Origin: a virus
Virus record (IMG/VR): IMGVR_UViG_3300033489_000025
Location: 1-40,940 of that record
DNA length: 40,940 nucleotides
Reading direction: 5' to 3' (one strand)
Positions within the stretch are counted from its first letter, which is position 1. Every line of letters starts with the position of its first letter. The notes under the pieces are model-generated. The model had not been told where the DNA came from and did not search any database. It saw only the letters and a list, made by a program, of their open reading frames with translations. Made by a program: the position numbers and the translations under genes. Of the stretch, positions 6,006 through 28,988 are shown piece after piece.

Positions 6006-6455
6006 ATGATTTGGGAAACGTATGTGCGACCACGGGTATGCGAGATACTCGAGTGGAAGCGCGAGTATTTCACCAATAATGAAATAGCACAAAAGTTAGG
6101 TATCACAATTAGACAGTTCAATAAGGTTTTAGCTGAAAACAAAACGCTTAAAGACCTGATGGATGAGGGCGATAAATACATTGTCAAACAGGTGGAAGGC
6201 GCTATATTCAGGCGCGCTATGGGCTATACATATGACGAAGAAACTTTGGAGACTTACCGATCGGGGGGTAAGCCGGTAACGAAAAAAAAGATTGTGAAAA
6301 AGCATGTTGAAGGTTCTGTCGCAGCCCAGCAATTTTTGCTTACTAACCTAAAGCCTGAGAAATATCAAAAATTGGATAAGGTTGATATACATGTCGTAGA
6401 ACCGATAACGATAATCGACGACCTGGGAGGCCAAGATGGAAATAAAGTTAAGTGA
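6006..6455 (+). CDS. terS: Terminase small subunit (HTH-containing)
   Basis: Lies just upstream of the large terminase and overlaps it; 'NNEIAQKLGITIRQFNKVL' HTH. Confidence 0.7.
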   Translation: MIWETYVRPRVCEILEWKREYFTNNEIAQKLGITIRQFNKVLAENKTLKDLMDEGDKYIVKQVEGAIFRRAMGYTYDEETLETYRSGGKPVTKKKIVKKHVEGSVAAQQFLLTNLKPEKYQKLDKVDIHVVEPITIIDDLGGQDGNKVK

Positions 6456-7668
6456 AATAATAAGTCCTAATTTTATCGAGTCCTGGAGAGCCGATTACAC
6501 GCATACCTATTGCATTGAAAAGGGCGGCCGTGATTCGGGTAAATCCAGTAAGCACGCCTTGCGCATGGTGTATAATCGTATGTCGACTATGACAAGCGGC
6601 GCTTGTATTAGACGTTTCGGTAACACACTACATGGTAGTGTGTATCAGGATATTATCTGGGCCACTAAAAAATTTGGCGTTCAGCACTTATGGGATTTCA
6701 AAAAGTCGCCATTAGCCGCAATATATAAGCCAACAGGTACTAAGATATTATTTAAAGGCACAGAGGGCCCCGAGGACCGAATTAAGGGGCTTAAGGACGA
6801 ATTCCCCATTAAGGATTGCCTATTTGATGAGGTCGCCGATTATCGACAAGAGGATGACCTCGACGTAGTTATAGATACTATACTCAGGTCCGAAATGGGG
6901 GAACGGTATTTATTTTTATTGGGCTATAACCCCCCAAAGCGTAAGACACACTGGCTCAATAAACGGTATAATACGCATAGCGATATACCAGATACGTTTA
7001 TACACCATTCGACAGTGTACGATAATCCATACGCGGCTAAGCAGATGATCGAGAGGGCTGATGAACTAAAGATAAGTAATAATGTTAAATGGCGCTGGCG
7101 CTATATGGGTGAAGCCATAGGTTATGGGGTTGTGCCTTTTAGTAATTTAGAGTTTAGACGTATTACGGATGAGGAGATATCCACATTTGACAATATTTGG
7201 TGTGGCGCGGATTGGGGCTATGCGAATAACCCATTTGCTTATGTTAGATGCCATTATGATAAGGTAAATAGGATTTTATATTTTATAGATGAGTTGGTAG
7301 GTGTTAAATTGCACAATGATTATATAATAGAATGGCTACTCGAAAAAGGGTATAATGAAAGAACAACAGCGGATAGTGCCAGTCCTAAAGATGTCCAATA
7401 TTTTAAGGACAGGGGCATTAATATGGTTGGCGCTAGAAAAGGCCCGGGCTCTATCGAATCTGGCGAAAGATGGCTGGACTCGTTAAAGGCTATCGTTATT
7501 GACGATAGACGTACGCCCAGGACGTCTAAGCAATTTGAGGACATTGACTATGCGGTAGACGCACAAGGGAATATGTTAGCGCGTCTGGAGGACAAAGAAA
7601 ACGATGTTATCGACGCAACGCGCTATGCATGTGAGCTATTGATATTGGATAGAAAGACTATATACTAA
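6436..7668 (+). CDS. terL: Terminase large subunit, PBSX/XtmB-like family
   Basis: Walker A 'GGRDSGKS', 'LFDEVAD' Walker B-like motif, C-terminal nuclease region 'GADWGY...DAT'. Confidence 0.85.
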   Translation: MEIKLSEIISPNFIESWRADYTHTYCIEKGGRDSGKSSKHALRMVYNRMSTMTSGACIRRFGNTLHGSVYQDIIWATKKFGVQHLWDFKKSPLAAIYKPTGTKILFKGTEGPEDRIKGLKDEFPIKDCLFDEVADYRQEDDLDVVIDTILRSEMGERYLFLLGYNPPKRKTHWLNKRYNTHSDIPDTFIHHSTVYDNPYAAKQMIERADELKISNNVKWRWRYMGEAIGYGVVPFSNLEFRRITDEEISTFDNIWCGADWGYANNPFAYVRCHYDKVNRILYFIDELVGVKLHNDYIIEWLLEKGYNERTTADSASPKDVQYFKDRGINMVGARKGPGSIESGERWLDSLKAIVIDDRRTPRTSKQFEDIDYAVDAQGNMLARLEDKENDVIDATRYACELLILDRKTIY

Positions 7669-7765
7669 TGCAATTATCGACGCTAGGGGGTATGCTTATG
7701 ATAATTACTTTATAAAGTAATTGCTGTATAATTACATTATTAAATTTGAAAGGTCGTGTAATTAT

Positions 7766-8509
7766 ATGAATAATTTACTAACAATTAAGAAAGATACAAT
7801 TTATATTGCTACTGATATTTTAGCAAAAGAATTAGAAAGACAGCATAAAATAATTTATAATTTGGTAAATGTATACAAGAAAGAGATTGAAACGTTGGGG
7901 GCTCTTCACTTTGAAAATGTTCCAAATTCTGGGGAAAAGGGCGGGGGTACAAAAAAGATTTATTACTTAAACAAAAAACAATACATTTTTCTAATTACAA
8001 ATATGAGAACTAAAGCGAATGAAAAAACTACAGTAATGAAAGCAAAACTTGCAATAGCTGATAGATTTGTTGAAATGGAAAAATGGATACTGGAACAGAA
8101 AACACAAAAGCAAAATGAGCAGTATATCGAAACTAGAAATCAAAGCAAAATAGGCAGAAGACAGGAAACAGATGTTATAAAAATATTTATAGAATACGCT
8201 AAAAGCCAGGGCTCTAAAAGTGCCGATAAATATTATATGAATTTTAGTAAAATGGAAAACGCGGCTTTCTTTATTATCCAGGAGCGTTTTAAAAACACCA
8301 GGGAAATTTTAGATATGGAGCAAGTGCAAAAAATTGCATTTGCAGATATCGTAATACGGAATGCCTTATTAGAAGGAATGGAAAAAGAAATGTTTTATAA
8401 AGATATTTTTCAATTAGCTAAAAAGAGAGTTTTAGAAGCGGCTAATTCATTGGGCGTTAAGGAAATTATACCAAATTATAATGGGGGTGTGAAATGTTTG
8501 ACCGATTAA
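7766..8509 (+). CDS. Rha-family phage regulatory protein with conserved C-terminal domain (paralog 1)
   Basis: N-terminus 'ILAKELERQHKIIYNLV...FENV...KKIYYLNKKQYIFLITNM' is Rha-like; the C-terminal half is a close paralog of 26136..26861; AT-rich. Confidence 0.65.
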   Translation: MNNLLTIKKDTIYIATDILAKELERQHKIIYNLVNVYKKEIETLGALHFENVPNSGEKGGGTKKIYYLNKKQYIFLITNMRTKANEKTTVMKAKLAIADRFVEMEKWILEQKTQKQNEQYIETRNQSKIGRRQETDVIKIFIEYAKSQGSKSADKYYMNFSKMENAAFFIIQERFKNTREILDMEQVQKIAFADIVIRNALLEGMEKEMFYKDIFQLAKKRVLEAANSLGVKEIIPNYNGGVKCLTD

Positions 8510-9735
8510 AATTTTGGCGAAATTTCGCCAAAAAATCCTATTACACAGATGACTATAGGGCGGGTGCGCCTATATGGTCCATACAAGACGATACGGCATA
8601 TGTAGAAGAGGCTTTTGAGAAAATCGTCTGGTGTTATAGCTGTATAATCGCTATAGCCAGTGCCGTTGGTTCGATACCGTGGCGTTTGTACAAGCGCACA
8701 GGCGCAGACCTTAAAGAGGTTAAGAGCCATTATTTACTCGACATGTTTAATGGCCAGGTAAATCCGGACTTCACTTCGGCCGAGTTTTTCGAACTCTGGG
8801 CGGTATTCCTGGCGACACAGGGTAAATTCTTTGCGCTTAAAGACAATCCCGTACTGCCAAGTGAACTAAGGCCTATGTATGGGCATCAAGTTAAACCGAT
8901 ACCAGGGCCGGGGCCTCAGACGCTAAGCGGCTTTGAGTATGAGCTTAATAATACCAGGTACAGCCCAAATTTAGTATTGTGGGATAGGTTTATAGACCCT
9001 TTAGATTTTTACCAGGGACTTAGCCCTATACGCGCGGGCGCGCGTACGATGGCCACAGAGAACCAGGCTGTTGACTGGAACAAAAACGTATTTGACAATA
9101 TCGGCATACCGCCGGGCGCCTTAGCCCTATACAATGTATCCCCAACCCAAATCGATGAAGCTAAAAAGCGTTGGTTATCAGACTATAGCGGGCCAAAAAA
9201 GGCGCGAATGCCGTTTATTTTTGATTCTGAAAAGATTAACTATATCAATTTTGGTATGAGCCAGGTTGATATGGATTTCATCATGCAGAAAAAAGTTAAC
9301 CGTATTGAAATTTGTAGCACATTCGGTGTACCTGGCCAGGTGGTCGGTGACCCTGAGGGCCAGACTTACGCGAATTATGGCGAAGCGCTAAAGGCCTTTT
9401 GGTCTCAGACGGTAATACCTAGATACTTAAACCGTATAGGCGCGAAACTTAATAAAGACGTTGTGCGCCTATACGATAAAGCTTTTGTAATTAAGCCCGA
9501 CTTATCGGATATAGCTGTGTTACAAGAAGACGAGACATCTAAAACTGATAGAATCAGAGGCCTATTTATGGATAACGTAATGACTCAAAATGAGGCGCGT
9601 GAGGCTGTGGGCTTAACGGCTATACCGACGGGCGATGTGTTTAATTATCAATTGGCCGCGGCTTTAGCGGATACGGTACTTGACGAAGACGCGCCAGCCG
9701 ATGAAGAGGATGAGGATGAGGCCGATGACAATTGA
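8494..9735 (+). CDS. Portal protein (HK97-type family)
   Basis: Position and size; acidic C-terminal tail 'DEDAPADEEDEDEADDN'. Confidence 0.8.
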   Translation: MFDRLKFWRNFAKKSYYTDDYRAGAPIWSIQDDTAYVEEAFEKIVWCYSCIIAIASAVGSIPWRLYKRTGADLKEVKSHYLLDMFNGQVNPDFTSAEFFELWAVFLATQGKFFALKDNPVLPSELRPMYGHQVKPIPGPGPQTLSGFEYELNNTRYSPNLVLWDRFIDPLDFYQGLSPIRAGARTMATENQAVDWNKNVFDNIGIPPGALALYNVSPTQIDEAKKRWLSDYSGPKKARMPFIFDSEKINYINFGMSQVDMDFIMQKKVNRIEICSTFGVPGQVVGDPEGQTYANYGEALKAFWSQTVIPRYLNRIGAKLNKDVVRLYDKAFVIKPDLSDIAVLQEDETSKTDRIRGLFMDNVMTQNEAREAVGLTAIPTGDVFNYQLAAALADTVLDEDAPADEEDEDEADDN

Positions 9736-10465
9736 TGAGATTGAAGTCAAAAGGGCTTATTGGGATAGGAAATTTGAGAAAGAGCTTAAAAAATTCTTTA
9801 CAGCCCAGGGGGATGCGATTTATAAACTAAGGCGTATAACCGATATTAAACAATTTGAGCGCCAAGCGCTTAAACAGGTCGAGCAAGACGCCCCAAAGTT
9901 AAATCGCTTGTTTGTTGGGATGTATACTGGGATTGTAACGGCTTTTGGCACAACTGTTTACAATGAGCTCGTGGGTAAAAAGATATTTTCGCTATTTGCG
10001 CTTGGGATTTATAGCTGGATCGCCTCTATGGCTAAGAGTCAGACAGGCAGACTAAATTTTTATACGCTTTTGACTATTAAAAATGTCGTGAAGAAGGGTA
10101 TCGAAGAAGGCAAAAGCGTAAGCGATATAGCTAAAACAATAAGGACTGTATACCTAGAACGCTTTAGCGCTAAGCGCTCTAAGCGTATAGCGCGTACTGA
10201 GGTCAACAGCGCGTCGAATTATGGTTCGTGGGCGGGGGCTACGCAAACGGGACTTACACTTAAGAAAATATGGATAAGCACAAAAGATAGTCGAACGCGA
10301 AAAACGCATAAGCGAGCAGGTCAAAAGTATCAAGCCCAGCCCATCGGGCTAGACGAGTATTTCCAGGTGGGTAAAGGAAAATTAAAATATCCGGGTGACC
10401 ATAGCGGGCCGCCCGAAGAGGTCATAAATTGCCGCTGCGCGGTAGGGTATAGGAGGGTTAAATAA
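9725..10465 (+). CDS. Minor head morphogenesis protein (Mu F / SPP1 gp7 family)
   Basis: 'RIARTEVNSASNYG', '...INCRCA' C-terminal pattern; ATG 9725 chosen to limit overlap with the portal gene. Confidence 0.75.
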   Translation: MTIDEIEVKRAYWDRKFEKELKKFFTAQGDAIYKLRRITDIKQFERQALKQVEQDAPKLNRLFVGMYTGIVTAFGTTVYNELVGKKIFSLFALGIYSWIASMAKSQTGRLNFYTLLTIKNVVKKGIEEGKSVSDIAKTIRTVYLERFSAKRSKRIARTEVNSASNYGSWAGATQTGLTLKKIWISTKDSRTRKTHKRAGQKYQAQPIGLDEYFQVGKGKLKYPGDHSGPPEEVINCRCAVGYRRVK

Positions 10466-11068
10466 ATGGATTATAAATTTGTAAAAACTGAGGTTAAGGC
10501 AAAGAGCGATTTTGAGTTTGAAGGATACGCGTCAATATTTGGTAATGTCGATGATGGTGGTGATATCATGCAGGCGGGGGCTTTTGCCAAAACTATAAAC
10601 GAAAATCTAAAAAGAGTTAAAGTTTTATACATGCATAATGTTATGAGCACTATTGGCTTACCGAGTAATTTATTCGAAGATTCGAAAGGCTTATATTTTG
10701 ATGCTAAGGTATCTAAAACAACACTGGGTAAGGACGTTATGACACTTATCCATGATAAAGTCATAACCGACATGTCGATCGGTTATAATCCGGTTAAGTG
10801 GGCATGGGATGAAGAAATGGAAGTCCGAACCCTGCAAGAGGTCAGGCTCTGGGAAATTTCGCCGGTCACATGGGGTATGAATTCCTTAGCCAGTATAAAA
10901 ATGTTTGCTTCAGGCTCTGAGTATGATACAATAAAATCAGAACTTAAAAGGCTGGAGGCACTTATTAAAGGAGCCGGATTATCATCCACTCCGGGCAATG
11001 AGCCGCCAAAGGTACACGAATTAAACCCGGACGTAATTGCCAGTTTAATTGATAGAATTAAACTATAA
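10466..11068 (+). CDS. Prohead serine protease (HK97 family)
   Basis: 'FEGYASIFGNVDDGGDIMQAGAF', 'MHN', 'MSIGY'; directly upstream of the capsid gene. Confidence 0.85.
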   Translation: MDYKFVKTEVKAKSDFEFEGYASIFGNVDDGGDIMQAGAFAKTINENLKRVKVLYMHNVMSTIGLPSNLFEDSKGLYFDAKVSKTTLGKDVMTLIHDKVITDMSIGYNPVKWAWDEEMEVRTLQEVRLWEISPVTWGMNSLASIKMFASGSEYDTIKSELKRLEALIKGAGLSSTPGNEPPKVHELNPDVIASLIDRIKL

Positions 11069-11081
11069 AGGGGGGCAATAT

Positions 11082-12335
11082 ATGCCAACTATTGAAGAAT
11101 TAGTACAGAAAATAGATACGCTATCCAATCAACGCGTAAGCTCAGACGTCTTTAAGACATCACTCGACGAGCTTAAAGCGATGGTCGAAAAGCGTAATGA
11201 CGATGTTAAGGTTGAGCTAAAATCACACTACGAAACAGCGATGAAAGCCGCGTCCGAAGAGTTTGCAGAAAAATTAAGACTTTCCATGGTGGAAATGGGT
11301 AAGACCTTTACTACAAGTGGAGAAACTGGGGAAGATCTACCAGACGAAAAAACATATGGAAAATCCTTTGGCGAGTTTTTGACAAAGGTTAAATATACAC
11401 CTGAAAGCCTAAAAGTTTTAGGCGAGAATACCGGATCCGCTGGCGGATATTTAGTACCGACAACATGGTCAAAACGTATTTTAAAAAGAGCAATTGAAAA
11501 AGGGCTTGTCAGGACTTTCGGACCTAGCTTAATCGATATGCCCACGCCAAAATTTGAAGTACCGACTATTACTTCTACAAGTAACAGCAGTAATTTCTAT
11601 GGCGGAATTATGACTTACTGGGGATCCGAAACAACAGATTTAGAAGCCGGAATTACACAACCCACATTTGGACAGGTTAATTTGGACGCTGGAAAACTTT
11701 ATGGATATGCCGAAAGCTCTGAAGATTTGGCGCAGGACGCAATTATCGCTATAGGCCCATTGCTTCAACAGCTATTTGGTGACGCGATTGCGTTTGAGGA
11801 AGACTACGCGTTTATTAATGGTAATGGCGTTGGTAAGCCTCTGGGTGTTGTAAATGCGCCTTGTAGGGTTACGGTATCTAGAGCCACAGCAACACAGATA
11901 AACACTATTGATATAGTTAATATGTTATCTCGTTTTAGTGGCTCAATGGATAACGCTGTATGGCTTGCTAATCAGACAGTATTGCCATATTTGTATACAT
12001 TACAAGACGCTGGCGGAAATTATATTTTATTTCCGGGTATGTCTGGCAATATCGCTGGAAGGTCTCCGGGCTCAATTTTTGGAATTCCATTGGTTATTAG
12101 TGAAAAGGCACAGGCACTTGGTACCTCAGGTGATTTGATTTTAGGTGACTGGTCTAACTATTTGATCGGTGACCTTAGAGGCTTAAGAATTGAAGAGTCA
12201 AAAGACTTTAAGTTTGGAACAGATAAACGATGCTGGAAAATCGTTAAAAGGGTTGACGGCAAACCGTGGTTAAACTCAGCAATCACACCGCGAAATGGCG
12301 GATCAACATTATCCCCATTCGTGCTAATATCTTAA
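11082..12335 (+). CDS. Major capsid protein, HK97 fold, with N-terminal delta/scaffold domain
   Basis: Coiled-coil N-terminus, then 'GGYLVP', 'EEDYAFINGNGVGKPLGV'; RBS 'aaggggggc'. Confidence 0.85.
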   Translation: MPTIEELVQKIDTLSNQRVSSDVFKTSLDELKAMVEKRNDDVKVELKSHYETAMKAASEEFAEKLRLSMVEMGKTFTTSGETGEDLPDEKTYGKSFGEFLTKVKYTPESLKVLGENTGSAGGYLVPTTWSKRILKRAIEKGLVRTFGPSLIDMPTPKFEVPTITSTSNSSNFYGGIMTYWGSETTDLEAGITQPTFGQVNLDAGKLYGYAESSEDLAQDAIIAIGPLLQQLFGDAIAFEEDYAFINGNGVGKPLGVVNAPCRVTVSRATATQINTIDIVNMLSRFSGSMDNAVWLANQTVLPYLYTLQDAGGNYILFPGMSGNIAGRSPGSIFGIPLVISEKAQALGTSGDLILGDWSNYLIGDLRGLRIEESKDFKFGTDKRCWKIVKRVDGKPWLNSAITPRNGGSTLSPFVLIS

Positions 12336-12349: not shown

Positions 12350-12763
12350 ATGAATAAATTTACAGAAATGATTACAGCCAGTTTGCAGATAGCGAAAACA
12401 GTAACAACCGGAATATCTAGCACTGCATTGTTAGATATGATGCCCTACAAAAAAAGTATGGTTTTAGTTACAGCGAATAAGCCGCTCGACGCAACAGGCT
12501 CAAGCGGTGTTATTACTGCTACAGTATATGAGTCCAGCGCGGCTACATGGAATGGCGCAGTCGCAACAGCTATGACATCATTTGTGTCGACGGTTAGTTG
12601 TAACAGCACAACAGAAGGCTTTATAAAATTAGAAGTTAATGATTATGACATGTCAATTAATGCAACAAAACGCTATTTAGGCGTTAGGGTTGCTGCCCAT
12701 ACAGCCACTGATATCGTATGTATAGTGCAAAGATACAGAGGCGATAACGAACCCCTAGAATAA
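12350..12763 (+). CDS. Ser/Thr/Ala-rich 137-aa protein, possible head decoration protein
   Basis: Directly follows the capsid gene; RBS 'aaggagg'; no motif recognised. Confidence 0.5.
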   Translation: MNKFTEMITASLQIAKTVTTGISSTALLDMMPYKKSMVLVTANKPLDATGSSGVITATVYESSAATWNGAVATAMTSFVSTVSCNSTTEGFIKLEVNDYDMSINATKRYLGVRVAAHTATDIVCIVQRYRGDNEPLE

Positions 12764-12813: not shown

Positions 12814-12842
12814 TTGTGCAAAGTATTTTTACATGATATAAT
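12814..12842 (+). promoter_or_regulatory. Promoter, conserved copy 3, driving the modification operon
   Basis: TTGTGC-17 nt-TATAAT; spacer 'aaagtatttttacatga' resembles those at 1990 and 5109. Confidence 0.55.
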
Positions 12843-12864
12843 AATACAAAAAGGGGGGTATACA

Positions 12865-13578
12865 ATGGAAACGTTAACACCAAAGACGTTAAGGCCTGAT
12901 AAGAAAACAATTATAATCGCGCTGCCAAATACAGGGCATTTTTATTTTGAGACTGTGGCGCGCTTATTATCTTTCCAAATACCTGAAGGGTATCAGCTCA
13001 TGTTTAACCTAATTTCTAATTGCTTGATTTACGATGCTCGTGAAAAGCTTGTGGAATTTGCGTTAGAACAGCCCAATGCAACGCACATTTTCTTTTTGGA
13101 CTCTGACATGGTGCCAGAGCCGCAAACGCTAACTCAATTAATAGGTTGGGATGTACCAATCGTCACAGCTAAAATCTATCAGCGCAAATTCCCATTCCAA
13201 CCATGCTTTTATACAAAAGTTAGAATAAATCGCGACTTTACAACAGAGTTAGAGGGACCAATGGAGCCTGAGAAATGGCCGTCTGAGGGTATATACGATA
13301 TAGAAGGTTGCGGTATGGCTTGTTGTCTGATTAACTTAAAAGTGTTTGAGGGACTTAAGAAACCATGGTTTTTCCCAATGCCCGGCGTGGGAGAAGACCT
13401 GGCTTTTTGCGTTAAAGCGAGAAGCGCAGGGCATAAGCTTTATGCGGATTTTGGTTTAGACTGTGCGCACATGGGTTATTTTCCAGTGGTTACGGCGTCT
13501 TTTCAAAACGCTTATACTGCGTGGATGAATAACCCCGAAAACAAAGGGAAATTAATATATGGCGGTGATGGGTTATGA
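12865..13578 (+). CDS. GT-A-fold glycosyltransferase
   Basis: 'IFFLDSDMVP' (DxD), 'GCGMACCLI', 'GVGEDLAFCVKARSAGHKLY'; no TM segment seen. Confidence 0.7.
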   Translation: METLTPKTLRPDKKTIIIALPNTGHFYFETVARLLSFQIPEGYQLMFNLISNCLIYDAREKLVEFALEQPNATHIFFLDSDMVPEPQTLTQLIGWDVPIVTAKIYQRKFPFQPCFYTKVRINRDFTTELEGPMEPEKWPSEGIYDIEGCGMACCLINLKVFEGLKKPWFFPMPGVGEDLAFCVKARSAGHKLYADFGLDCAHMGYFPVVTASFQNAYTAWMNNPENKGKLIYGGDGL

Positions 13579-14576
13579 GAATATGGGGCGGTGCGCTTGT
13601 GCGTAATGAGCAAGGGCGATATTTACAAAGATTTTGTGAGCAAATGCGGGCGATATGTGACCATGTTATCGTAATAGATGATGCCTCAACAGATAATACC
13701 GCAGATTTTTGTCGACAATATGATTTTAGTGTATTGTCTTCTAAGAAAAGATTATGGGATACCGACGAGGTAAGGCAAAGGAAAAGACTTTTTAATACCT
13801 TGACTTCACACGCGACACCGGGTGACTGGATATTGATACTTGACGCTGACGAGTTATTTCACGCGCCTCATAAGGTTGTACGTAGAGAATTAGAATATGC
13901 TAAAATACACACTTCTTTTATGGCTTATAGGTTATACGACATATGGCAAATACATAATGTGGGCTTTATTAATTCTAAAGTTAAGACGCCGCACTGCGAT
14001 GGCTTAGGCGTAGTAAACGCTGATGAATCAGGTAACGTGTATTTTTATAGAAATGACGAGTATTGGAATGCGCATGATAGTTATTGGCCTATGGCTTATA
14101 GGTATGAGGGTATTCAAGAATGGAAATGGAACGAACAAAGCCTTCATTGTGGAAGATTTCCCTATAATATTTATAAGAATATTAGCCCTTCGAATTATAA
14201 ATTACTGCATTTAGGCTGGGCGACCTTAGCGGATAGGCAACAGAAATACGCTAGATATATGAAGGCTGATCCTGACGGCAAATTTGGGATTATGGGCCAA
14301 TATCAATCAATATTGGACCCAAATCCGACTCTGGAGGTGGCGATTATGAATATTAAAGATATGACTGATAGTTTTATAATTTCGATGGTACACGACATCG
14401 AAGAATTATCAGAGCTACAAAAAGAACTGTGTAAATATTTAAGGGGTAACGAAAATAGGAATAAAATTATTGAAGAGGTAGCGGATGTTGAAATCGCTTT
14501 GAATGATATTAAAGCAAAATTCGACATCAAAGAAGTGAATATTAAAAGAGCGAAATTAAAGAAGGGGGTTTTATAA
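13575..14576 (+). CDS. Family-2 glycosyltransferase with a C-terminal MazG-like helical extension
   Basis: 'VIVIDDASTDNT', 'ILILDADE'; C-terminal 76 aa 'IEELSELQKEL...IIEEVADVEIALNDI' begins at an in-frame ATG (14346) with its own GGAGGTG RBS. Confidence 0.7.
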   Translation: MRIWGGALVRNEQGRYLQRFCEQMRAICDHVIVIDDASTDNTADFCRQYDFSVLSSKKRLWDTDEVRQRKRLFNTLTSHATPGDWILILDADELFHAPHKVVRRELEYAKIHTSFMAYRLYDIWQIHNVGFINSKVKTPHCDGLGVVNADESGNVYFYRNDEYWNAHDSYWPMAYRYEGIQEWKWNEQSLHCGRFPYNIYKNISPSNYKLLHLGWATLADRQQKYARYMKADPDGKFGIMGQYQSILDPNPTLEVAIMNIKDMTDSFIISMVHDIEELSELQKELCKYLRGNENRNKIIEEVADVEIALNDIKAKFDIKEVNIKRAKLKKGVL

Positions 14577-15125
14577 ATGGGCCCAGTAATGAATTATTCA
14601 GACCGTAGAGAGGTACTATTCTTCGCTGAACATTATAATTTTTTAGATGGTAAAATTTTAGATATCGGCTGTGGCACAGGCAATGCCGCAGATTTCTATA
14701 AAGACTATACCGGCATAACTTTAAACCGCCAGGAACTAGATACAGGTGTAACTCGTGGACGAAATATTAAATATATGGATGCTGAAAATTTAAGCCTTGA
14801 CACAGCGACTTTTGATGGCTTCATAATGTGGGATTCACTGGAGCACTTTTTGAGTCCGTATAGGGCTCTTTGTGAAGCTCGACGTGTGCTAAAGCCTGAT
14901 GGTAAGGGCCTAATATTTATGCCTGGTCAAAACTGGGTAAATTGCCATGAGCACTTACATGTTATGACTGTGCCTCAGATGGAACAGATTTTAAAAAGAA
15001 CTTTTTTTAAAGTTATAAATATTTATGAGAAAAAGTATCCTGGTAAACCAGATAAATATTGCGAGGGTATGGCGGTATACGAAATAATAAATGATATTGA
15101 ATATATACCGATGTTTGAAACGTGA
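14577..15125 (+). CDS. Class I SAM-dependent methyltransferase
   Basis: 'ILDIGCGTGN', 'FDGFIMWDSLEH', 'LKPDGKGLIF'. Confidence 0.8.
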   Translation: MGPVMNYSDRREVLFFAEHYNFLDGKILDIGCGTGNAADFYKDYTGITLNRQELDTGVTRGRNIKYMDAENLSLDTATFDGFIMWDSLEHFLSPYRALCEARRVLKPDGKGLIFMPGQNWVNCHEHLHVMTVPQMEQILKRTFFKVINIYEKKYPGKPDKYCEGMAVYEIINDIEYIPMFET

Positions 15126-15223: not shown

Positions 15224-17200
15224 ATGAAATTAATACTTTGTTATCCACCGCATATTGCGCCAGATGCGCAACACGGTCAAGGGCGTGAGTGGTACCCCAT
15301 AGGTATCGCGTCTTTAGCGGCTTATATAGATTCTAAATATAGAGATATCGATATAGCGTGTTTAGACCTATTCGATTTATCGTATGATGAATCTTTAAAT
15401 AAGATAACTAATGAAATGACCGAAAATGATATAAATTTAGTCGGTTTTACGCTTATGACTGAGCAAAGGGCTACAGTGTTTAATCTTTGTGCCGATTTGA
15501 AACAGCGCGTCGACGATTATAATTCAATCGCTAATACTACAACCCAATTAAGGACGATTGTTGGAGGTCCGCACGCGTCAATAATGTATCAGCAGATATG
15601 GGATAATTATAGCCAGATTGATTTTATCGTTGTGGGTGAGGGCGAAAAAGGTTTACTCCGGGTTATTTACAACCCGGATGTTCGAGGTATAGTCAAAGAA
15701 GATCAAATCGAAGATTTAGACACTTTGCCTTTAGCGATTGAGGGCTTAAAGTTTTTTAAACCCGGGCTTAAATTTAAAGAATACCCTATAGTATCGTCCC
15801 GCGGGTGCACAGACCGATGTACATTTTGTACAACGTATATAACCTGGAAGGGTTATCGCGTAAGAAGTGCGTATGATATATTTTTGGAAATAAATAAGGC
15901 TAAGGCTCTGGGCTATCAGTATTTTAAATTTCACGACGACAGCGCAACAGCTGATATGCAAAACTTTTTAGCCTTATGCCATATGTTAAAAGACTCGAAA
16001 ATTAATTTCGAGATAACGGCCAGGGCTGATCAACTAAATGAAGAATTAGTTAAGGCGTTAAAAATTGCCGGATGTGTCAAAGTCGCTTTAGGCCTGGAAT
16101 CAGGAAGCGAAAAGCTTAGAAAGTCAATGGGCAAAAAGTTAGACATAGCCCTGGCGTATCAAAACGTAAGATTACTACAGACTTATGGCGTACACGTCCA
16201 CGGTCTATTTATTGTAGGCTGGCCGGGTGAGACCGAAGAGACTATCGAAGAGACCCGCGATATGATTAAAGAGTTAAGATTAGACACTTTCTCAAATCTT
16301 CCGGGCTTAATGGCATTACCAGGAAATCCAATATATAATAAGTTTAAAAAAGATGGCTGGATAGATGATAGCTTTTGGTTAACACCTCATGCGCCTCCAT
16401 ATTACACAGGCGAGCATAATTTTGAGACACTAAATTATTTTAGTTCAAGACTTAGAGCGAGAGACGCGCGTGTGCTTATTGCGGCTGTGGTTAATCAGGA
16501 AGAACGCGTTTTCGCTGAATACTTAGAGCATTTAGATAATATGGCTGTGCCTAAAGACGTTGAGGTCTCTAGATGCTTTATATTACACAATAGCCCGGAT
16601 TTGAAAAAGTATCTTAAACCTGACGAGTATATCGAAGTAGATAATAATTTGGTCCATGATATGAGCCATACGTGGAATATTGAAAAGTTTACGTTTTTAG
16701 CCGATTGTAAGAATAAAATAGTCGAAATAGCCAATGGCGCACACGCGACTCACATTTTGTGGATTGATAGTGACTTATTGGTACAACCTGAAACGCTAAA
16801 ACATTTATTAAGCCTAAATGTTGATATTGTAGGCGAAATGTTTTTGACACAGTGGCCCGGCGCTGATAGGCCGATGCCTAACGCGTGGCACGTGGACCAA
16901 TATAGTTTTTACGCTGACCCAAAAATGTTTGATACTCGAGGCTTATATATGGTTGGAGGTACCGGGGCATTGATATTAGTGAATATACGTGTGTATGGCG
17001 ACTATATTAATTATAAAGCCGTCCCAAATGTGTCATTTAGCATCTGGGAAGATAGAGCCTTTTGTATAAGGGCTGCATGTGGGGGGTATAATATATATTT
17101 CGATACCAGGTACCCGGCCAGGCATTTATACACTAAAGAAATAACAGATAGCTATTTTAATGGTATAATAGAAGCGGGAGGTGTTAAAAATGGAGAATAA
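15224..17200 (+). CDS. B12-binding-domain radical SAM enzyme fused to a C-terminal GT-A-like domain
   Basis: N-terminal 'LVGFTLMT...IVGGPHAS'; 'SSRGCTDRCTFCT' (CxxxCxxC); 'GLESGSEKLRKSMGK'; C-terminal 'ILWIDSDLLV' and 'WEDRAFCIRAACGGYNIY'. Confidence 0.75.
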   Translation: MKLILCYPPHIAPDAQHGQGREWYPIGIASLAAYIDSKYRDIDIACLDLFDLSYDESLNKITNEMTENDINLVGFTLMTEQRATVFNLCADLKQRVDDYNSIANTTTQLRTIVGGPHASIMYQQIWDNYSQIDFIVVGEGEKGLLRVIYNPDVRGIVKEDQIEDLDTLPLAIEGLKFFKPGLKFKEYPIVSSRGCTDRCTFCTTYITWKGYRVRSAYDIFLEINKAKALGYQYFKFHDDSATADMQNFLALCHMLKDSKINFEITARADQLNEELVKALKIAGCVKVALGLESGSEKLRKSMGKKLDIALAYQNVRLLQTYGVHVHGLFIVGWPGETEETIEETRDMIKELRLDTFSNLPGLMALPGNPIYNKFKKDGWIDDSFWLTPHAPPYYTGEHNFETLNYFSSRLRARDARVLIAAVVNQEERVFAEYLEHLDNMAVPKDVEVSRCFILHNSPDLKKYLKPDEYIEVDNNLVHDMSHTWNIEKFTFLADCKNKIVEIANGAHATHILWIDSDLLVQPETLKHLLSLNVDIVGEMFLTQWPGADRPMPNAWHVDQYSFYADPKMFDTRGLYMVGGTGALILVNIRVYGDYINYKAVPNVSFSIWEDRAFCIRAACGGYNIYFDTRYPARHLYTKEITDSYFNGIIEAGGVKNGE

Positions 17201-17783
17201 ATTTTTGGCGTATAATGATGAAAAAATGGATACGGTTGAGGGCTTTAAAATACCGGCTTCATGGTGGTCAAGGCCTTTAGAATATGCGTTCGCCGCTAAA
17301 TATGTAAATAAAAAACATGTTGTAATTGACGCCGGATGCGGCATTGAGCATCCGTTTAAGTACTACTTAGCCAGTAATTCAAAGCACGTAACCTGTATAG
17401 ACACAGACGAGAGACTTGAGACTTTGCTCAGGCCTGATAACATGAATTTTATATTACGCGATATGTCAAATGATTGTGATACCGACGAAATAATAGCCGA
17501 TACAATCTTTTGCCTAAGTGTTTTAGAGCATATGAATCCTGCGCAACAGGCAAAGACTATAGAAAATTTCGTTAAATGGTTAAAGCCAAATGGCAAATTA
17601 ATTTTAACTGTTGACTATCCGACTATAAAACCAGAGGTTTTATGCGCTATGCTAGAGCCGCATTTTACGATAGGGAAATGCGATTATGATCCTGACAATA
17701 AGGCTAATATCGTTATGCCTTACTATAACTTAAAGGTATTTACTCTAGTTGGCACTAAAAAGAAGGTGGTCAAATGCGATTAA
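17190..17783 (+). CDS. Class I SAM-dependent methyltransferase (second)
   Basis: 'VIDAGCGIEHPF', 'IFCLSVLEHM', 'LKPNGKLILTVD'; ATG 17190 after a GGAGG RBS. Confidence 0.75.
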   Translation: MENKFLAYNDEKMDTVEGFKIPASWWSRPLEYAFAAKYVNKKHVVIDAGCGIEHPFKYYLASNSKHVTCIDTDERLETLLRPDNMNFILRDMSNDCDTDEIIADTIFCLSVLEHMNPAQQAKTIENFVKWLKPNGKLILTVDYPTIKPEVLCAMLEPHFTIGKCDYDPDNKANIVMPYYNLKVFTLVGTKKKVVKCD

Positions 17784-18364
17784 CCTTATTAACGGCATCG
17801 ACTCAGAGTATTCTGGGTATAACCGCTACTAAAAACTATTTAAAAGTCGAGCATACGACAGACGATACACTTATAAATACACTAATGACCGCGGCTGTGT
17901 CAATAGTCGAAAATTACACAGGTCTTGTCACGCATGAGCAAACATGGCGACAGGACGAAGAAGGCGACAGCGACTACTTAGAATTAATGAAAGCGCCGGT
18001 CAAAAGTATTCTTGAAGTCAAGTACTATGAAGATTTTGACAGTACAGGAAGTTTACTAACTGAGTCGACGGATTTCCGTGTTGCCGGTCAGTACCTTGTG
18101 CATGACGACGATTATTGGGATAAGCAAAGGGGTTTGGACGGATATCAAATTAAGTATTCAGTTGGGATGTATACGACTGATCCGCGTATGTCAAGTATGG
18201 AAATAGCCGCTTTAGCACTAACGGGATTTCTCTATGAGAATAGAGAGGCTTATGTCGTACAAGTCAATGAAACCTTTAGCGTAGTGTACGACTTTTCAAA
18301 AACACCAGCGCATATAATGCAATTGCTAAGACCCATTTGCGAAGGCCGGGGGGTGGGCTTCTAA
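17774..18364 (+). CDS. Head-tail connector protein (gp6-like)
   Basis: 'LKVEHTTDDTLINTLMTAAVSIVENYTG' is the typical N-terminal pattern; position. Confidence 0.7.
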   Translation: MRLTLLTASTQSILGITATKNYLKVEHTTDDTLINTLMTAAVSIVENYTGLVTHEQTWRQDEEGDSDYLELMKAPVKSILEVKYYEDFDSTGSLLTESTDFRVAGQYLVHDDDYWDKQRGLDGYQIKYSVGMYTTDPRMSSMEIAALALTGFLYENREAYVVQVNETFSVVYDFSKTPAHIMQLLRPICEGRGVGF

Positions 18365-20981: not shown

Positions 20982-21274
20982 AAGAGCTCTATAAAATAGC
21001 GGCCCGGTGGTTAACCTGGAGAGAATTTATCCGGTTCACGCCGGGCGCTTTTAATATATTCCTTGATACAAAAATCGAAATGGAAAATTATGAAACTGAG
21101 AAAATGAATAATTATTATGGCACAGTATGTGCGGTAATTGCGTCTGTTTTTAGCAAAAAGAAGTTTAAGGCCAAGGATTTTTTTGGCAAAGCAAAAAAAG
21201 AACAAACCATTGATGAAATGGCCGCGTTCTTTGAGGCGATGACGCGAGCTTTAGGAGGTGAAATTATTGGCTGA
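20634..21274 (+). CDS. Frameshift-extended tail assembly chaperone (gpGT-like)
   Basis: Track ORF 21080..21274 is in the -1 frame relative to 20634..20981 and is open back to the slip site. Confidence 0.65.
20956..20964 (+). promoter_or_regulatory. Programmed -1 ribosomal frameshift slippery site (A9)
   Basis: 'gaaaaaaaaact'; the -1 frame stays open from here to 21274 (my translation KKNWTEEIKELYKIAARWLTWREFIRF...). Confidence 0.7.
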
Positions 21275-23540
21275 TGAAGAATTAAAAGTAAGGATATCAA
21301 CAGATACGGAAGATAGTAAAGCCGCAATATCGGATATGGATGGGCTGTTTAGCGGTCTTGGGGATACTGTTAAAGGCTTTGCGCTAGGCGCGGCCGCGTC
21401 TTTAGCGGCGTTCACTATCGCGATGGGTGTTAAAGGCGTCAATGCGGCGTCCGAGTTGGAGAAAGCCGTTAATGATGTTACAACCCAGACGGGCGCGGGA
21501 AAGAAGGAAATGGGCGGTTTCCGTGATATTTTAACCGATTTGTACGCGCAGAATTTTGGTGAATCCTTTGAGGATTTAGGCAAAAGCTTAGCCGAAGTTA
21601 AAAAGCAGACCAAACTAAGTGGTACGGAACTTGAAAACTTTACCAAAAACGCGTTAATATTACGTGACACTTTCGAATTCGAGGTTACGGAATCCACTAG
21701 AGCGGCTAAGCAAATGATGGACCAGTTCGGTATTTCTGGGGACGACGCTTTTAACCTGATTGCGCAAGGCGCGCAAAAAGGTTTGAATAAAAATGATGAC
21801 CTATTGGATTCAATTAATGAGTATAGTGTGCAGTTTAAAAGCATTGGGCTTGACGCTGATGATATGTTCGAGATGTTCGGTGCTGGCGCTGAGTCTGGCG
21901 CATTTTCGATTGACAAAATAGGCGATGCGATTAAGGAATTTAATATAAGATCCAAGGACATGTCTAAGGGAAGTGCCGAAGGTTTTAAGGCCCTGGGGCT
22001 TAACGCTGATAATATGTTCAAAAAGTTTGCTGGCGGCGGGGCCAAGGCGCAAGAAGCTTTTTTCCAGGTCATCCAAAAGCTAGGCGCGATTAAGGATAAG
22101 ACTAAGCAAAATGCGGTAGGCGTCGCGTTATTTGGCGCACAGTTTGAGGACCTGGAGGCTCAGGGAATTTTAGCACTGGGGAATCTAGGTAATGAATTTG
22201 ATCAGACTAAAAAAACCATGGATTCGATCAACCAGATACGCTATAACACATTCGGCGAGGCCATGGCCGGAATAGGCCGACAAATAGAGGTGGGTTTATT
22301 AATACCATTTGGGCAGTTATTATTGCCTATGCTTAATAAATTCAGTAGCTGGATAGCTACAGCCCTGCCAGGTGCTATCGCAATATTTAAACAAATAGCA
22401 GCATTTATCAGTTCGGTATTTGGTCCAGTTTTCGCGGAGTCTTTCGCTAATATAAAATTGGCACTTGGTAATTTCGTTACTGGTGTTCAGGGCTCAGGGG
22501 CCAGCGCGACACCGATATTTACGGCACTTAAAGACCTTTTCAGGACTCTGGCTAATACCTGGAAGATTTATAGTGATATAGTCACAAAGCAAGTGCTACC
22601 TGCGTTTTTGACTGTGGTTGGTCAATTATTGCCCGTGTTAGGGGCTATATTCTTTGGTATTATTAAAGCGCTTCAGGGTGTTTATGTAGTTTGGGGTGTA
22701 ATATGGGGTGCGGTTGGTGGTTTAGTGGGCCAAATATTTAAGCAGATAGCCACTGTCGTCACTGCAAATATGAATATTATAAAGGCTATTATTAGTATTG
22801 TAAGTGGCCTGATCAAAGGCGACTGGTCTATGGTATGGAATGGTATTAAAACGATAATCAAAAATGCGTTTTCCATAATTAAAGGCGTAATTAAGACTGG
22901 GCTTACAATGTGGAAATCAATTTTCTCATTAATGCTGGGTTTAATTAAAATCGCTGTGCAAAATGGCTTTATCGTTCTAAAGAATTTAATTAAGCTTCAG
23001 ATCCAATTATCTGTAAGCATAATCAAAAATGCCTTAACACTTATGGTTAATACTTTTAAGAGTAAAGGCGCAAATATCAAAAGCGCTATGAGTTCAGTAT
23101 TAAATTATATTAAAAATGCTTTAGCCAATTTAGGCAAACAGGCATATAGCTGGGGGTCTAATTTCCTAAAAGCTTTTACAAATGGCATAAAATCCCGAAT
23201 AGCGGCCCTAAAGAATATGGTTAAGAGCGCGGCCCAACAGCTCAAAAATATGTTAGGCTTTAGTTCTCCGACAAAAGAAGGTCCTGGACGCACAGCCCAT
23301 AAGTGGGGTCCGAATTTTGTGAAGATGTTTGCGGCTGGTATAGCTAAAAATATAAATCTGGTTAAACGTGCCAGTAACACCACCGCGTTAGCCCTTGCGC
23401 CAGCGCGAATTCCGACCAGCGTTGGAGGCTCTAATTTCTCAAATGTAATTAATATTACCGGTAATAGTATCGTTAATGAAGCTTTAGTAGAGGCCATAAT
23501 GAATAAAGCCATCCGCTTAATGGCGAATAGGGGGCGTTAG
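21267..23540 (+). CDS. Tape measure protein
   Basis: ~757 aa, helical N-terminus, hydrophobic central block; TTG 21267 lies 9 nt after AGGAGG (the track start GTG 21258 abuts the RBS). Confidence 0.85.
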   Translation: MADEELKVRISTDTEDSKAAISDMDGLFSGLGDTVKGFALGAAASLAAFTIAMGVKGVNAASELEKAVNDVTTQTGAGKKEMGGFRDILTDLYAQNFGESFEDLGKSLAEVKKQTKLSGTELENFTKNALILRDTFEFEVTESTRAAKQMMDQFGISGDDAFNLIAQGAQKGLNKNDDLLDSINEYSVQFKSIGLDADDMFEMFGAGAESGAFSIDKIGDAIKEFNIRSKDMSKGSAEGFKALGLNADNMFKKFAGGGAKAQEAFFQVIQKLGAIKDKTKQNAVGVALFGAQFEDLEAQGILALGNLGNEFDQTKKTMDSINQIRYNTFGEAMAGIGRQIEVGLLIPFGQLLLPMLNKFSSWIATALPGAIAIFKQIAAFISSVFGPVFAESFANIKLALGNFVTGVQGSGASATPIFTALKDLFRTLANTWKIYSDIVTKQVLPAFLTVVGQLLPVLGAIFFGIIKALQGVYVVWGVIWGAVGGLVGQIFKQIATVVTANMNIIKAIISIVSGLIKGDWSMVWNGIKTIIKNAFSIIKGVIKTGLTMWKSIFSLMLGLIKIAVQNGFIVLKNLIKLQIQLSVSIIKNALTLMVNTFKSKGANIKSAMSSVLNYIKNALANLGKQAYSWGSNFLKAFTNGIKSRIAALKNMVKSAAQQLKNMLGFSSPTKEGPGRTAHKWGPNFVKMFAAGIAKNINLVKRASNTTALALAPARIPTSVGGSNFSNVINITGNSIVNEALVEAIMNKAIRLMANRGR

Positions 23541-26135: not shown

Positions 26136-26861
26136 ATGGAAATGATAGAATTAAAAAACAATGTACCATTAACAAGTACAAAAGTAATTGAATATTATAC
26201 AGGAGTAAAGCATCAGAATATTTTGCAATTATTTAGAAATCATGAAAAAAGTATAGAAAAATTCGGGGTTATCATGTTTGAAACATGGAAACCAAAAAAA
26301 GGAAGTAAAGGCGGCCGACCAGAAGCGTTTTATTATTTAAATGAAGAACAGTTTACATTTTTTATAATGTTAATGGCCAATAGCGAAAAAGTCGTTAAAT
26401 TTAAGATCGAACTAAATAAACAATTCCATCAATATCGTAAATACATACTGGAGCAAAAAACACAAAAGCAGAACCAACAATATATTGAGACAAGGAAGCA
26501 AAGCAAAATAGGCCGAAAACAGGAGACCGACATTATTAAATTATTTGTAGAATACGCAACGAATCAAGGTTCTAAGTCGGCGGAAAAATATTATATGAAT
26601 TTTAGCAAAATGGAGAATTCTGCTTTCTTTATGCTCCAAGAAAAGTTTAAAAATGTTAGGGAGATATTAAATATGGGACAGCTTAATAAAATTATTTTTG
26701 CTGACCTGATTATTAGACAGGCGATAACTGAAGGGATGGAAAAAGAAATGTTTTACAAAGATATTTATAAATTAGCTAAAGAGCGAATTATTGGGGCTTC
26801 AAATAGTGTCGGAATTAAAGAGATTTTACCAGGCATAGAGTTTAAAAGACTGGAGGTGTGA
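26136..26861 (+). CDS. Rha-family phage regulatory protein with conserved C-terminal domain (paralog 2)
   Basis: 'TSTKVIEYYTGVKHQNILQLFRN...FYYLNEEQFTFFIMLM' is Rha-like; C-terminus 'ILEQKTQKQNQQYIETRKQSKIGR...' matches 7766..8509. Confidence 0.7.
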   Translation: MEMIELKNNVPLTSTKVIEYYTGVKHQNILQLFRNHEKSIEKFGVIMFETWKPKKGSKGGRPEAFYYLNEEQFTFFIMLMANSEKVVKFKIELNKQFHQYRKYILEQKTQKQNQQYIETRKQSKIGRKQETDIIKLFVEYATNQGSKSAEKYYMNFSKMENSAFFMLQEKFKNVREILNMGQLNKIIFADLIIRQAITEGMEKEMFYKDIYKLAKERIIGASNSVGIKEILPGIEFKRLEV

Positions 26862-28367: not shown

Positions 28368-28988
28368 TCACGACCACCTTTCAGCTAAGGCCTTTATGTC
28401 GGCCAATACTTTTACTTGTTTGTCTAAAAGTTTATAGTACATAGTTTTGTAGTCTGGGCTGTTAATACCAAAGTAGTCGTATAGCCCTTTAACTAAAAGA
28501 CTTGCTATTTTTGCGGCTTGCGTATGTATTATTTCAGCGTCACTTTTCAAATCGTGAAAACCTATTTCTAAAATAATCGCAGGGGCTTTTGTGCTGTTTA
28601 ATTCCTCTAAGGCTTTATTTTCATAGGTTAGAGGATTTCGGGCCTTAAACAGCCCAACTAAAGGCGCGATTATCGCTTTTGCGGCTTTTGCCCCTTCGGC
28701 ACTATAGTAAATAGCCTCAACGCCTTGACCGCCTCCAGCGTTGGTGTGAATGCCAATATGCAGATCGGCACTGTGCTTATTGCTTTGTGCGATTGCCCAT
28801 TTGCGCCTTAGGGTCTCTGTGTTTGCGCTATCAGGCGCCGTGCTTATAAGCACAGGGCTTATAAGTTTGTCTTTTAAAAGATTATCGCATACTATTGCGG
28901 CGATAATGGCGCAGTGCTGGGCCTCTGTATCGCCCAAAACGCATTTATTTTGTATCTGATGGCTTGGACACAATACTACTGTTTTCAT
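28368..28988 (-). CDS. N-acetylmuramoyl-L-alanine amidase (Amidase_3 family) endolysin, catalytic domain only
   Basis: 'CPSHQ...TEAQH', 'ADLHIGIHTNAGGG', 'GVEAIYY', 'PAIILEIGFHD'; ATG 28988 after GGAGGTG. Confidence 0.8.
   Translation of the reverse strand: MKTVVLCPSHQIQNKCVLGDTEAQHCAIIAAIVCDNLLKDKLISPVLISTAPDSANTETLRRKWAIAQSNKHSADLHIGIHTNAGGGQGVEAIYYSAEGAKAAKAIIAPLVGLFKARNPLTYENKALEELNSTKAPAIILEIGFHDLKSDAEIIHTQAAKIASLLVKGLYDYFGINSPDYKTMYYKLLDKQVKVLADIKALAERWS

Follow-up and report, generated by a model that had tools for sequence, protein, structure and literature searches.

A single gene in the window analysed here, the 40,940 nucleotides (nt) of IMG/VR virus record IMGVR_UViG_3300033489_000025, encodes a B12-binding radical S-adenosylmethionine (SAM) enzyme joined to a GT-A glycosyltransferase in one polypeptide of 658 amino acids (aa). 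Judged by its gene content, the window is a ~41 kb genome of a tailed, siphovirus-like phage. The fusion belongs to the radical SAM superfamily and to the B12-binding architecture class, with a GT-A glycosyltransferase as its C-terminal half. We propose, with about even confidence, that the fusion is a bifunctional enzyme of a phage-encoded, probably virion-directed, glycosylation pathway, coupling glycosyl transfer to radical tailoring of a sugar, most likely by C-methylation.

A conserved fusion of a B12-type radical SAM enzyme and a glycosyltransferase

The fusion gene contains the following domains and motifs, the motifs being read from the fusion sequence.

15224-17200, plus strand: fusion gene, B12-binding radical SAM enzyme plus GT-A glycosyltransferase, 658 aa (open reading frame (ORF), Pfam, 20 full-length homologues, AlphaFold2 model)
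15287-15655, plus strand: B12-binding-type Rossmann domain, residues 22-144 (PF02310, 43.1 bits against a cut-off of 32.1)
15557-15580, plus strand: IVGGPHAS, residues 112-119
15788-16267, plus strand: radical SAM core, residues 189-348 (PF04055, 86.5 bits against a cut-off of 29.5)
15806-15829, plus strand: CTDRCTFC cluster motif, C195-x3-C199-x2-C202
16091-16108, plus strand: GLESGS
16460-17173, plus strand: GT-A domain, residues ~413-650 (Foldseek, sequence profile against the Protein Data Bank (PDB), invariant motifs, paralogue at 12814-13578)
16766-16774, plus strand: DxD motif, D515-S-D517, inside ILWIDSDLL
17048-17053, plus strand: E609-D610, inside WEDRAF
17123-17125, plus strand: H634 of the glycosyltransferase half

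The ORF at 15224-17200 begins with ATG, has an AAAGGAG ribosome-binding site 8 nt upstream and runs without interruption. An initial annotation, made from the sequence alone, had described a single polypeptide with B12-binding, radical SAM and GT-A parts, and this description agrees with the Pfam matches, the AlphaFold2 model, the Foldseek search of each half and the homologues. The motifs it quoted (IVGGPHAS, CTDRCTFC, GLESGS, ILWIDSDLL and WEDRAFCIRAACGG) all lie where it had placed them; the start that it gave for the glycosyltransferase domain, residue ~440, moves to about residue 413.

Among 5.8 billion proteins searched, we found the identical protein and 20 full-length fusion homologues of 646-737 aa at 41-84% identity, drawn from JGI, ENA, Logan and one metagenome-assembled genome at NCBI, and located mostly on contigs of 35-40 kb. 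A separate look-up by exact sequence gave no record for the window protein. We aligned the window protein with these homologues and found several positions to be invariant in 21 of the 21 sequences: C195, C199 and C202 in the radical SAM half, GGxH (114-117) and GEGE (138-141) in the Rossmann domain, and D515-S-D517, W608-E-D-R611 and H634 in the glycosyltransferase half. The junction, WIDDxYWL...PYYT...LIAAVVNQ, is likewise kept in the fusion homologues, with no linker gap. The AlphaFold2 model, which was built on the homologue alignment, has a mean predicted local distance difference test score (pLDDT) of 87.2 and a predicted template modelling score of 0.79, and the pLDDT stays at 86-93 across the junction (residues 390-430).

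The initial annotation had called for a check of the junction. Between 16380 and 16620 the ORF's own frame is the sole open frame, and this, together with the conserved junction and the fused homologues, rules out a missed stop or frameshift there. That two neighbouring genes were joined by an assembly or sequencing error, for which there is only the prior that such artefacts happen, is vanishingly improbable against 20 independent homologues from different samples with the same architecture and gap-free junction, the single open frame and a model that is confident through the junction. Because these homologues keep both halves and the junction, the fusion is not a frameshift artefact; as far as sequences can tell, it is a genuine conserved single protein. 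When 1.84 billion representative proteins were searched exhaustively with hidden Markov models, only two 50%-identity clusters spanned both halves, and the fusion is thus a narrow clade. A fold search of BFVD found no viral predicted structure that spans both halves.

The radical SAM half

The N-terminal half carries the CxxxCxxC motif of the radical SAM superfamily, scores above the gathering threshold of PF04055 and has a B12-binding Rossmann domain preceding the radical SAM core. Foldseek matched it at probability 1.0 to AprD4, TsrM and MiaB, consistent with the partial TIM-barrel fold of the superfamily. In a sequence profile search against the PDB, the core matched AprD4 (6fd2) best (1e-24; 22% identity), followed by MgmA (9ccb), OxsB and RimO, with TsrM, CysS and TokK much weaker. 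The fold search gave a similar picture: AprD4 came first (9e-19; template modelling score 0.69 on the target), MgmA second (8.5e-17), and then TsrM, MiaB, OxsB and CysS. AprD4, a close characterised relative, is the radical SAM 1,2-diol dehydratase of apramycin biosynthesis and removes oxygen from the sugar of paromamine.

The N-terminal domain behaved differently from the core when its profile was searched alone. It matched the cobalamin domain of OxsB (5.5e-6), weakly TokK, with GGPH and GEGE aligned (E 0.011, where the usual threshold is 0.001), and 4Q37 (E 0.1); AprD4 was not matched. Thus, the core resembles a sugar-modifying enzyme, while the N-terminal domain resembles a genuine cobalamin domain of the OxsB and TokK kind, and on these similarities the fusion probably uses cobalamin. 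HpnJ and OxsB, both similar to the fusion in our searches, act on sugar rings.

The fusion does not fall into a named family. Its best NCBIfam model is that of ApyD, a peptide-modifying enzyme (127.6 bits against a cut-off of 750), and it scores 113 bits against 578 for HpnJ and 78.2 bits against 500 for the AprD4 family (NF033070), the last over residues 189-383 only. We therefore rejected assignment to the AprD4 family or to any named B12-radical SAM subfamily (ApyD, HpnJ, PhpK, BchE, ladderane, MgmA), all of which lie far below their cut-offs. AprD4 binds no cobalamin, yet it sits in the similarity network of the B12-radical SAM enzymes (2026 review, PMC12931638); membership of that network is thus no guarantee of cobalamin binding.

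The glycosyltransferase half

Structure prediction and Foldseek, which the initial annotation had suggested as a check, matched the C-terminal half to GT-A folds. The best match was COLGALT1 (9evj/9u7i, ~1e-11), followed by the glycosyltransferase domain of LH3, mimivirus R699 and SpsA; the sequence profile against the PDB gave COLGALT1 (7e-5) and Mnn9 (0.017). The nearest folds, COLGALT1 and LH3, are protein O-glycosyltransferases. In the AlphaFold2 model, residues 415-650 have a Rossmann-like β/α/β layout with the DSD after the fourth strand. The half is a single α/β/α domain with a DxD after β4, a downstream acidic residue and a histidine, and its predicted structure fits a metal-dependent GT-A enzyme.

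The likeness of this half to a stand-alone glycosyltransferase of the same genome, pointed out in the initial annotation, was borne out: residues 483-647 align with the product of 12814-13578 at 27% identity (E 7e-16), and the two are paralogues. A Pfam match to Anp1/GT62 (PF03452) over the 47 residues 490-536 stayed below threshold, at 25.2 bits against 28.8, and we kept only the term GT-A fold, rejecting a GT62/Anp1 assignment. Some homologues do pass PF03452 (P0219, for example, at 52.6 bits) while the window protein fails, so the relation to GT62 is a distant one.

A putative glycosylation cassette between the capsid and connector genes

The setting of the fusion gene, which the initial annotation had overlooked, is a phage structural module. 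The fusion and its neighbours fill the interval between the capsid and head-tail connector genes with six tightly packed same-strand genes, and phage glycosyltransferase and methyltransferase genes here lie in the structural block adjoining the capsid gene.

11049-12335, plus strand: major capsid protein, HK97 type, upstream boundary of the cassette (PF05065 at 3.3e-43, phrog_10)
12350-12763, plus strand: Thr/Ser/Ala-rich all-β protein of 137 aa, called p137 below (conserved after the capsid gene; AlphaFold2)
12814-13578, plus strand: stand-alone GT-A glycosyltransferase (phrog_1574, phrog_12406; weak Anp1; paralogue of the glycosyltransferase half of the fusion)
13575-14576, plus strand: GT2-family glycosyltransferase with a C-terminal MazG-like segment (PF13704, PF00535; phrog_13126, phrog_2245)
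14577-15125, plus strand: class I SAM-dependent methyltransferase directly upstream of the fusion (Methyltransf_11/23/25; position conserved)
17181-17783, plus strand: second class I SAM-dependent methyltransferase, overlapping the 3' end of the fusion gene (Methyltransf_11/23/25; position conserved)
17774-18364, plus strand: head-tail connector, gp6-like, downstream boundary of the cassette (PF05135; position conserved)

The GT2-family gene also has a weak NCBIfam match to the SunS-family peptide S-glycosyltransferases. The protein p137 has no match in Pfam, PHROG or NCBIfam. Its AlphaFold2 model (pLDDT 75) is a β-sandwich with weak and heterogeneous Foldseek matches to lectins, carbohydrate-binding modules, viral jelly rolls and PBSX XepA, and its gene directly follows the capsid gene in all relatives. 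As a guess, p137 may be a capsid decoration protein and/or a glycan acceptor.

The gene order is conserved. Every examined fusion locus reads capsid, p137, glycosyltransferase, GT2, (methyltransferase), fusion, methyltransferase, head-tail connector. At the same position, a prophage of Paenibacillus oryzisoli 1ZS3-15 (contig NZ_LYPB01000049.1) has capsid, a p137 homologue, the first glycosyltransferase and a stand-alone version of the fusion's glycosyltransferase half, without a radical SAM enzyme and without methyltransferases. Prophages of Clostridium, Sarcina and Ideonella have this glycosyltransferase fused to a GT2 domain instead. The proteins of this kind at five loci in Sarcina, Clostridium and Ideonella (L008, L009, L011, L013, L014) measure 620-660 aa, and in P0173 the two domains stand in the reverse order.

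We also noted a join within the GT2 gene of the window. Its C-terminal ~84 aa (14322-14576) match phrog_2245, a MazG-like nucleoside triphosphate pyrophosphohydrolase family. In an 84%-identical relative (L016) the MazG-like segment has an ORF of its own, 77 aa long and in a different frame (2450-2680), and in other relatives the GT2 proteins are only ~236-245 aa long. The join in the window is thus a recent gene fusion or a lost stop or frameshift.

Radical SAM, methyltransferase and glycosyltransferase domains recur together

Relatives of the radical SAM half occur in comparable settings. In positions 3270-7529 of L026, the gene of the closest stand-alone relative (441 aa, 38% identity) and that of a short-chain dehydrogenase are translationally coupled, and genes for a DUF2284 protein, a nucleotidyltransferase and an epimerase-like protein come after them; the same locus holds a GT2+GT1 protein and two methyltransferases. 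In an unrelated siphovirus lineage (L027/L028), the order is scaffold, capsid, three glycosyltransferases, methyltransferase, B12-radical SAM, methyltransferase, glycosyltransferase, where the B12-radical SAM protein is stand-alone, with 379 aa and 32% identity to the radical SAM half. On further viral contigs (L029-L039), the radical SAM relative is flanked by methyltransferase and glycosyltransferase genes, in one case with a sulfotransferase; two of these clusters (L029, L030) do not visibly adjoin capsid genes.

The same domains are also joined in other orders, in some cases with tetratricopeptide repeats (TPR):

P0256: methyltransferase + B12-radical SAM
P0238: B12-radical SAM + GT2
P0130: B12-radical SAM + methyltransferase + glycosyltransferase + methyltransferase + glycosyltransferase + B12-radical SAM, 1879 aa (L097, 2649-8288)
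P0167: B12-radical SAM + methyltransferase + glycosyltransferase + hexapeptide transferase + GT2 + TPR
P0239: glycosyltransferase of the fusion's C-terminal type + GT1 + methyltransferase + GT2 + TPR, 1686 aa

By shared neighbourhoods and repeated independent fusion, radical SAM enzymes are tied to class I methyltransferases and glycosyltransferases in a functional guild that recurs. The initial annotation had linked the fusion to sugar chemistry, and this link is strengthened by the glycosyltransferase and methyltransferase cassette and by the stand-alone radical SAM relatives in other phage clusters of glycosyltransferases and methyltransferases. It had also not recognised the architecture; this holds among characterised enzymes, while uncharacterised proteins that join B12-radical SAM and glycosyltransferase domains do exist (P0130, P0167, P0238).

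Some of these proteins are very large. P0130, P0167, P0122, P0123 and P0127 are giant uncharacterised proteins of 1.8-2.3 thousand aa; some giant proteins carry two B12-radical SAM modules with a methyltransferase and GT2, and others three to four tandem B12-radical SAM modules. The neighbours of P0130 are a methyltransferase and a GT1 protein. Another B12-radical SAM family (L036-L095, from IMG/VR) abounds on viral contigs, often in two copies a few kb apart. Its ORFs measure ~650-780 aa from stop to stop and have 26-30% identity to the radical SAM half; glycosyltransferase or methyltransferase neighbours of this family were not detected.

Among cultured phages, the only relative of the radical SAM half is in Streptomyces phage SF3, at 28% identity over 29% of the protein. 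There, a B12-binding radical SAM protein (L096, NC_028952.1, 26181-27680) lies beside a thymidylate kinase and a NUDIX hydrolase, a setting that points to a nucleotide-related function with no connection to the glycosyltransferase cassette. The nearest cultured relatives of the capsid protein reach at most 38% identity and have scattered hosts.

A proposed pathway and its alternatives

From the architecture, the motif conservation, the gene order and the recurrence of the guild we infer a glycosylation pathway, including its use of cobalamin, its reaction type, its sugar substrate and its virion target. The cassette would be expressed with the late structural genes and would most likely act on virion proteins, namely the capsid protein and/or the adjoining p137. 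The C-terminal GT-A domain would take a nucleotide sugar as its donor, with a divalent metal bound by D515/D517 and H634, and E609/D610 would supply the catalytic base. This half would add one sugar to a growing glycan and the cassette's two other glycosyltransferases would add further sugars, the three glycosyltransferase domains building a short glycan. In the N-terminal half, C195, C199 and C202 would bind a [4Fe-4S] cluster and SAM would be cleaved to a 5'-deoxyadenosyl radical. The radical SAM half, probably with cobalamin in its Rossmann domain, would then modify an unactivated sugar carbon of the same glycan, most likely by C-methylation; the alternatives are a ring rearrangement or a deoxygenation of the AprD4 type. 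It may act on the donor sugar before transfer, as the initial annotation had proposed along with substrate channelling, or else on the glycan once transferred or on the acceptor. O- or N-methyl groups may come from the two class I methyltransferases on either side. Fusion of the two halves would hold tailoring and transfer on the same acceptor. There is precedent for such an arrangement in WsaE, whose N-terminal methyltransferase domain methylates the rhamnose set by its own two glycosyltransferase domains on an S-layer protein glycan (PMC2943079). Capsid and tail-tube proteins of mycobacteriophages are modified through the phages' own glycosyltransferase and O-methyltransferase genes (Freeman et al. 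2023, as cited in PMC11600133 and PMC12619734). By analogy with these genes, the position of the cassette next to the capsid gene makes a virion target likely, and the protein O-glycosyltransferases nearest in fold to the glycosyltransferase half point the same way.

Several observations weigh against this proposal. The fusion reaches no curated NCBIfam cut-off, even with its best model, ApyD, and homology thus does not define its substrate class. Because AprD4 does not use cobalamin, the similarity of the core does not favour methylation. Our scans of the window (Pfam, PHROG and others), which took in most but not every one of the ORFs of 70 aa or more, found no nucleotide-sugar biosynthesis gene and no short-chain dehydrogenase partner, so that a modified donor sugar would have to be supplied by the host. 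None of the cultured phages carries the fusion or its glycosyltransferase half. The predicted structure of p137 gave weak matches that do not identify it as a virion protein, and the fold neighbours of a GT-A domain are weak guides to the type of acceptor.

It is possible, though doubtful, that the radical SAM half acts in the same pathway as an AprD4-like, cobalamin-independent enzyme that dehydrates or deoxygenates (or epimerises or contracts) the sugar, its Rossmann domain being a structural remnant. AprD4 is the top match both by sequence and by fold, it lies in the B12-radical SAM network without binding cobalamin (PMC12931638), and the coupling of the L026 relative to a short-chain dehydrogenase is like that of AprD4 to AprD3. 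This coupling also recalls the AprD4/AprD3 pair as one of a dehydratase and a reductase, and no reductase gene was found in the window's cassette. Moreover, the AprD4 family model scores far below its cut-off and covers the core only, whereas the N-terminal domain exceeds the Pfam B12-binding threshold, and its profile gives a match to OxsB, weak ones to TokK, with which it has GGPH and GEGE in common, and to 4Q37, and none to AprD4.

Somewhat less probable is that the cassette remodels envelope glycopolymers of the host (teichoic acid, S-layer, capsule), for example as a block to superinfection or an aid to release. Phage glycosyltransferases commonly alter host surface glycans (PMC12619734), the radical SAM clusters of L029 and L030 stand apart from visible capsid genes, and in giant, cellular-looking proteins domains of these kinds stand beside TPR repeats, as in the assembly of envelope glycans. 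In every relative, however, the cassette lies between capsid and connector on the same strand and tightly packed, and a location in the head gene block is also seen in the unrelated lineage of L027 and L028. No integrase or lysogeny module was found among the window ORFs scanned, and the late operon encloses the cassette; we rejected a lysogenic-conversion moron on these grounds. The cassette proteins match no family of polyprenol-phosphate priming transferases, flippases or transporters; membrane segments were not tested.

We consider it unlikely that the radical SAM half modifies a residue of the acceptor protein, by C-methylation as in MgmA/Mmp10 or by creating or marking a glycosylation site, the part that lysyl hydroxylase plays in LH3, with the glycosyltransferase then glycosylating that protein. 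MgmA, a protein glutamine C-methylase, is the second structural match, the peptide-modifying ApyD is the best NCBIfam match, and related radical SAM proteins carry TPR protein-interaction domains. Of COLGALT1 and LH3, which the glycosyltransferase half resembles, LH3 too is a fusion of a residue-modifying enzyme and a glycosyltransferase. These similarities all lie far below the family thresholds, however, and the relatives of the radical SAM half accompany glycosyltransferase, methyltransferase, nucleotidyltransferase, short-chain dehydrogenase and sulfotransferase genes, as is typical of sugar pathways. To our knowledge, no radical SAM enzyme creates an acceptor for O-glycosylation. By analogy, and with a probability that we put slightly lower again, the fusion could be an anaerobic, radical SAM counterpart of LH3, in which the radical SAM half creates or marks the acceptor site on a capsid or decoration protein and the GT-A half glycosylates it. 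If so, proteins of a virus particle would carry a kind of modification not known before.

Hypermodification of the phage DNA with tailored sugars is very improbable. Virus-encoded glycosyltransferases can glycosylate DNA (Pyle et al. 2024, as cited in PMC12619734), and the SF3 relative adjoins thymidylate kinase and NUDIX genes; against this, the cassette sits in a structural operon, the SF3 match reaches only 28% identity over 29% of the protein, and no pyrimidine hydroxymethylase or nucleotide-modification gene was found among the ORFs scanned, which makes DNA hypermodification unlikely and led us to reject DNA glycosylation.

Relation to known systems

The proposed virion glycosylation enzyme shares features with several characterised systems. 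AprD4 acts on a sugar, as the fusion probably does, has in common with it an N-terminal Rossmann-type domain and a single CxxxCxxC motif, and is the best match to its radical SAM core and to the C-terminal extension of that core. The two differ in that AprD4 has only 22% identity, is not matched by the N-terminal domain, uses no cobalamin, has no fused glycosyltransferase and partners the reductase AprD3, of which the window's cassette has no counterpart. In the class B enzymes TokK, TsrM, OxsB, MgmA/QCMT and CysS, too, a radical SAM barrel comes after a B12-binding Rossmann domain (Foldseek E 1e-13 to 1e-17; GGPH and GEGE in common with TokK), but identity is 13-18%, and none has a glycosyltransferase domain or is encoded in a phage structural module.

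The collagen hydroxylysine glycosyltransferases COLGALT1 and LH3 (PLOD3) and mimivirus R699 are the nearest GT-A folds and have a DxD-type metal site, and LH3 also joins a residue- or substrate-modifying enzyme to a glycosyltransferase in one polypeptide. They differ from the fusion in their low identity (15-17%), in being eukaryotic or from a giant virus, and in their partner domain, an Fe/2-oxoglutarate oxygenase where the fusion has a radical SAM enzyme. WsaE of Geobacillus stearothermophilus has an N-terminal sugar-tailoring methyltransferase followed by glycosyltransferase domains and serves a protein-linked glycan of a Firmicute (PMC2943079). It is a cellular enzyme with a classical SAM O-methyltransferase that acts on a lipid-linked glycan, and the likeness drawn here is one of architecture.

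The glycosyltransferase cassettes of mycobacteriophages lie in the structural gene block. As described in the papers that cite them, the cassettes of Che8, Corndog/cluster O and Myrna contain tandem phage glycosyltransferase genes, which in cluster O lie downstream of an O-methyltransferase gene. These are actinobacteriophages, the passages in the citing papers mention no radical SAM component, and our searches found no similarity in sequence to any cultured phage. In the literature we found no description of a radical SAM-glycosyltransferase fusion enzyme or of a radical SAM part of a phage glycosylation cassette. The new element relative to known phage glycosylation cassettes and to fusions of tailoring enzymes with glycosyltransferases is the B12-type radical SAM domain. 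We know of no radical SAM enzyme that acts on a protein-linked glycan, and of no phages other than mycobacteriophages for which phage-encoded virion glycosylation has been shown experimentally. Virion glycosylation of mycobacteriophages blunts antibody recognition.

The hosts of the phages with this cassette, judged from relatives, are probably Firmicutes or other anaerobes. The cassette suggests that uncultivated phages make more elaborate, heavily tailored glycans with radical SAM chemistry, and glycans of this kind could bear on the stability, host range and immune evasion of the phages. The guild of B12-type radical SAM enzymes, glycosyltransferases and methyltransferases also offers a substrate hypothesis for radical SAM proteins of unassigned function.

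Other features of the genome

Outside the cassette, the scans placed the following genes.

2871-4154: SNF2 helicase
6006-6455: small terminase
6436-7668: large terminase
8494-9735: portal
9680-10465: MuF
10466-11068: prohead protease
21258-23540: tape measure
28368-29027, minus strand: amidase endolysin
30437-30961: Enc34-type single-stranded DNA-binding protein
31675-33522: family A DNA polymerase
35886-37940: VapE-type primase

Two genes encode Rha-family regulators (7721-8509 and 26136-26861). The first separates the large terminase gene from the portal gene, an unusual site at which four relatives (L004, L019-L021) have no gene. A third class I methyltransferase-like gene is found in the replication module (34240-35163), and a gene at the genome end (39410-40855) encodes a protein of 481 aa that has a papain-family cysteine protease domain. 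The portal and MuF-like proteins are separate in the window and fused (~700 aa) in the more distant relatives L001 (3923-6028) and L025 (3145-5223).

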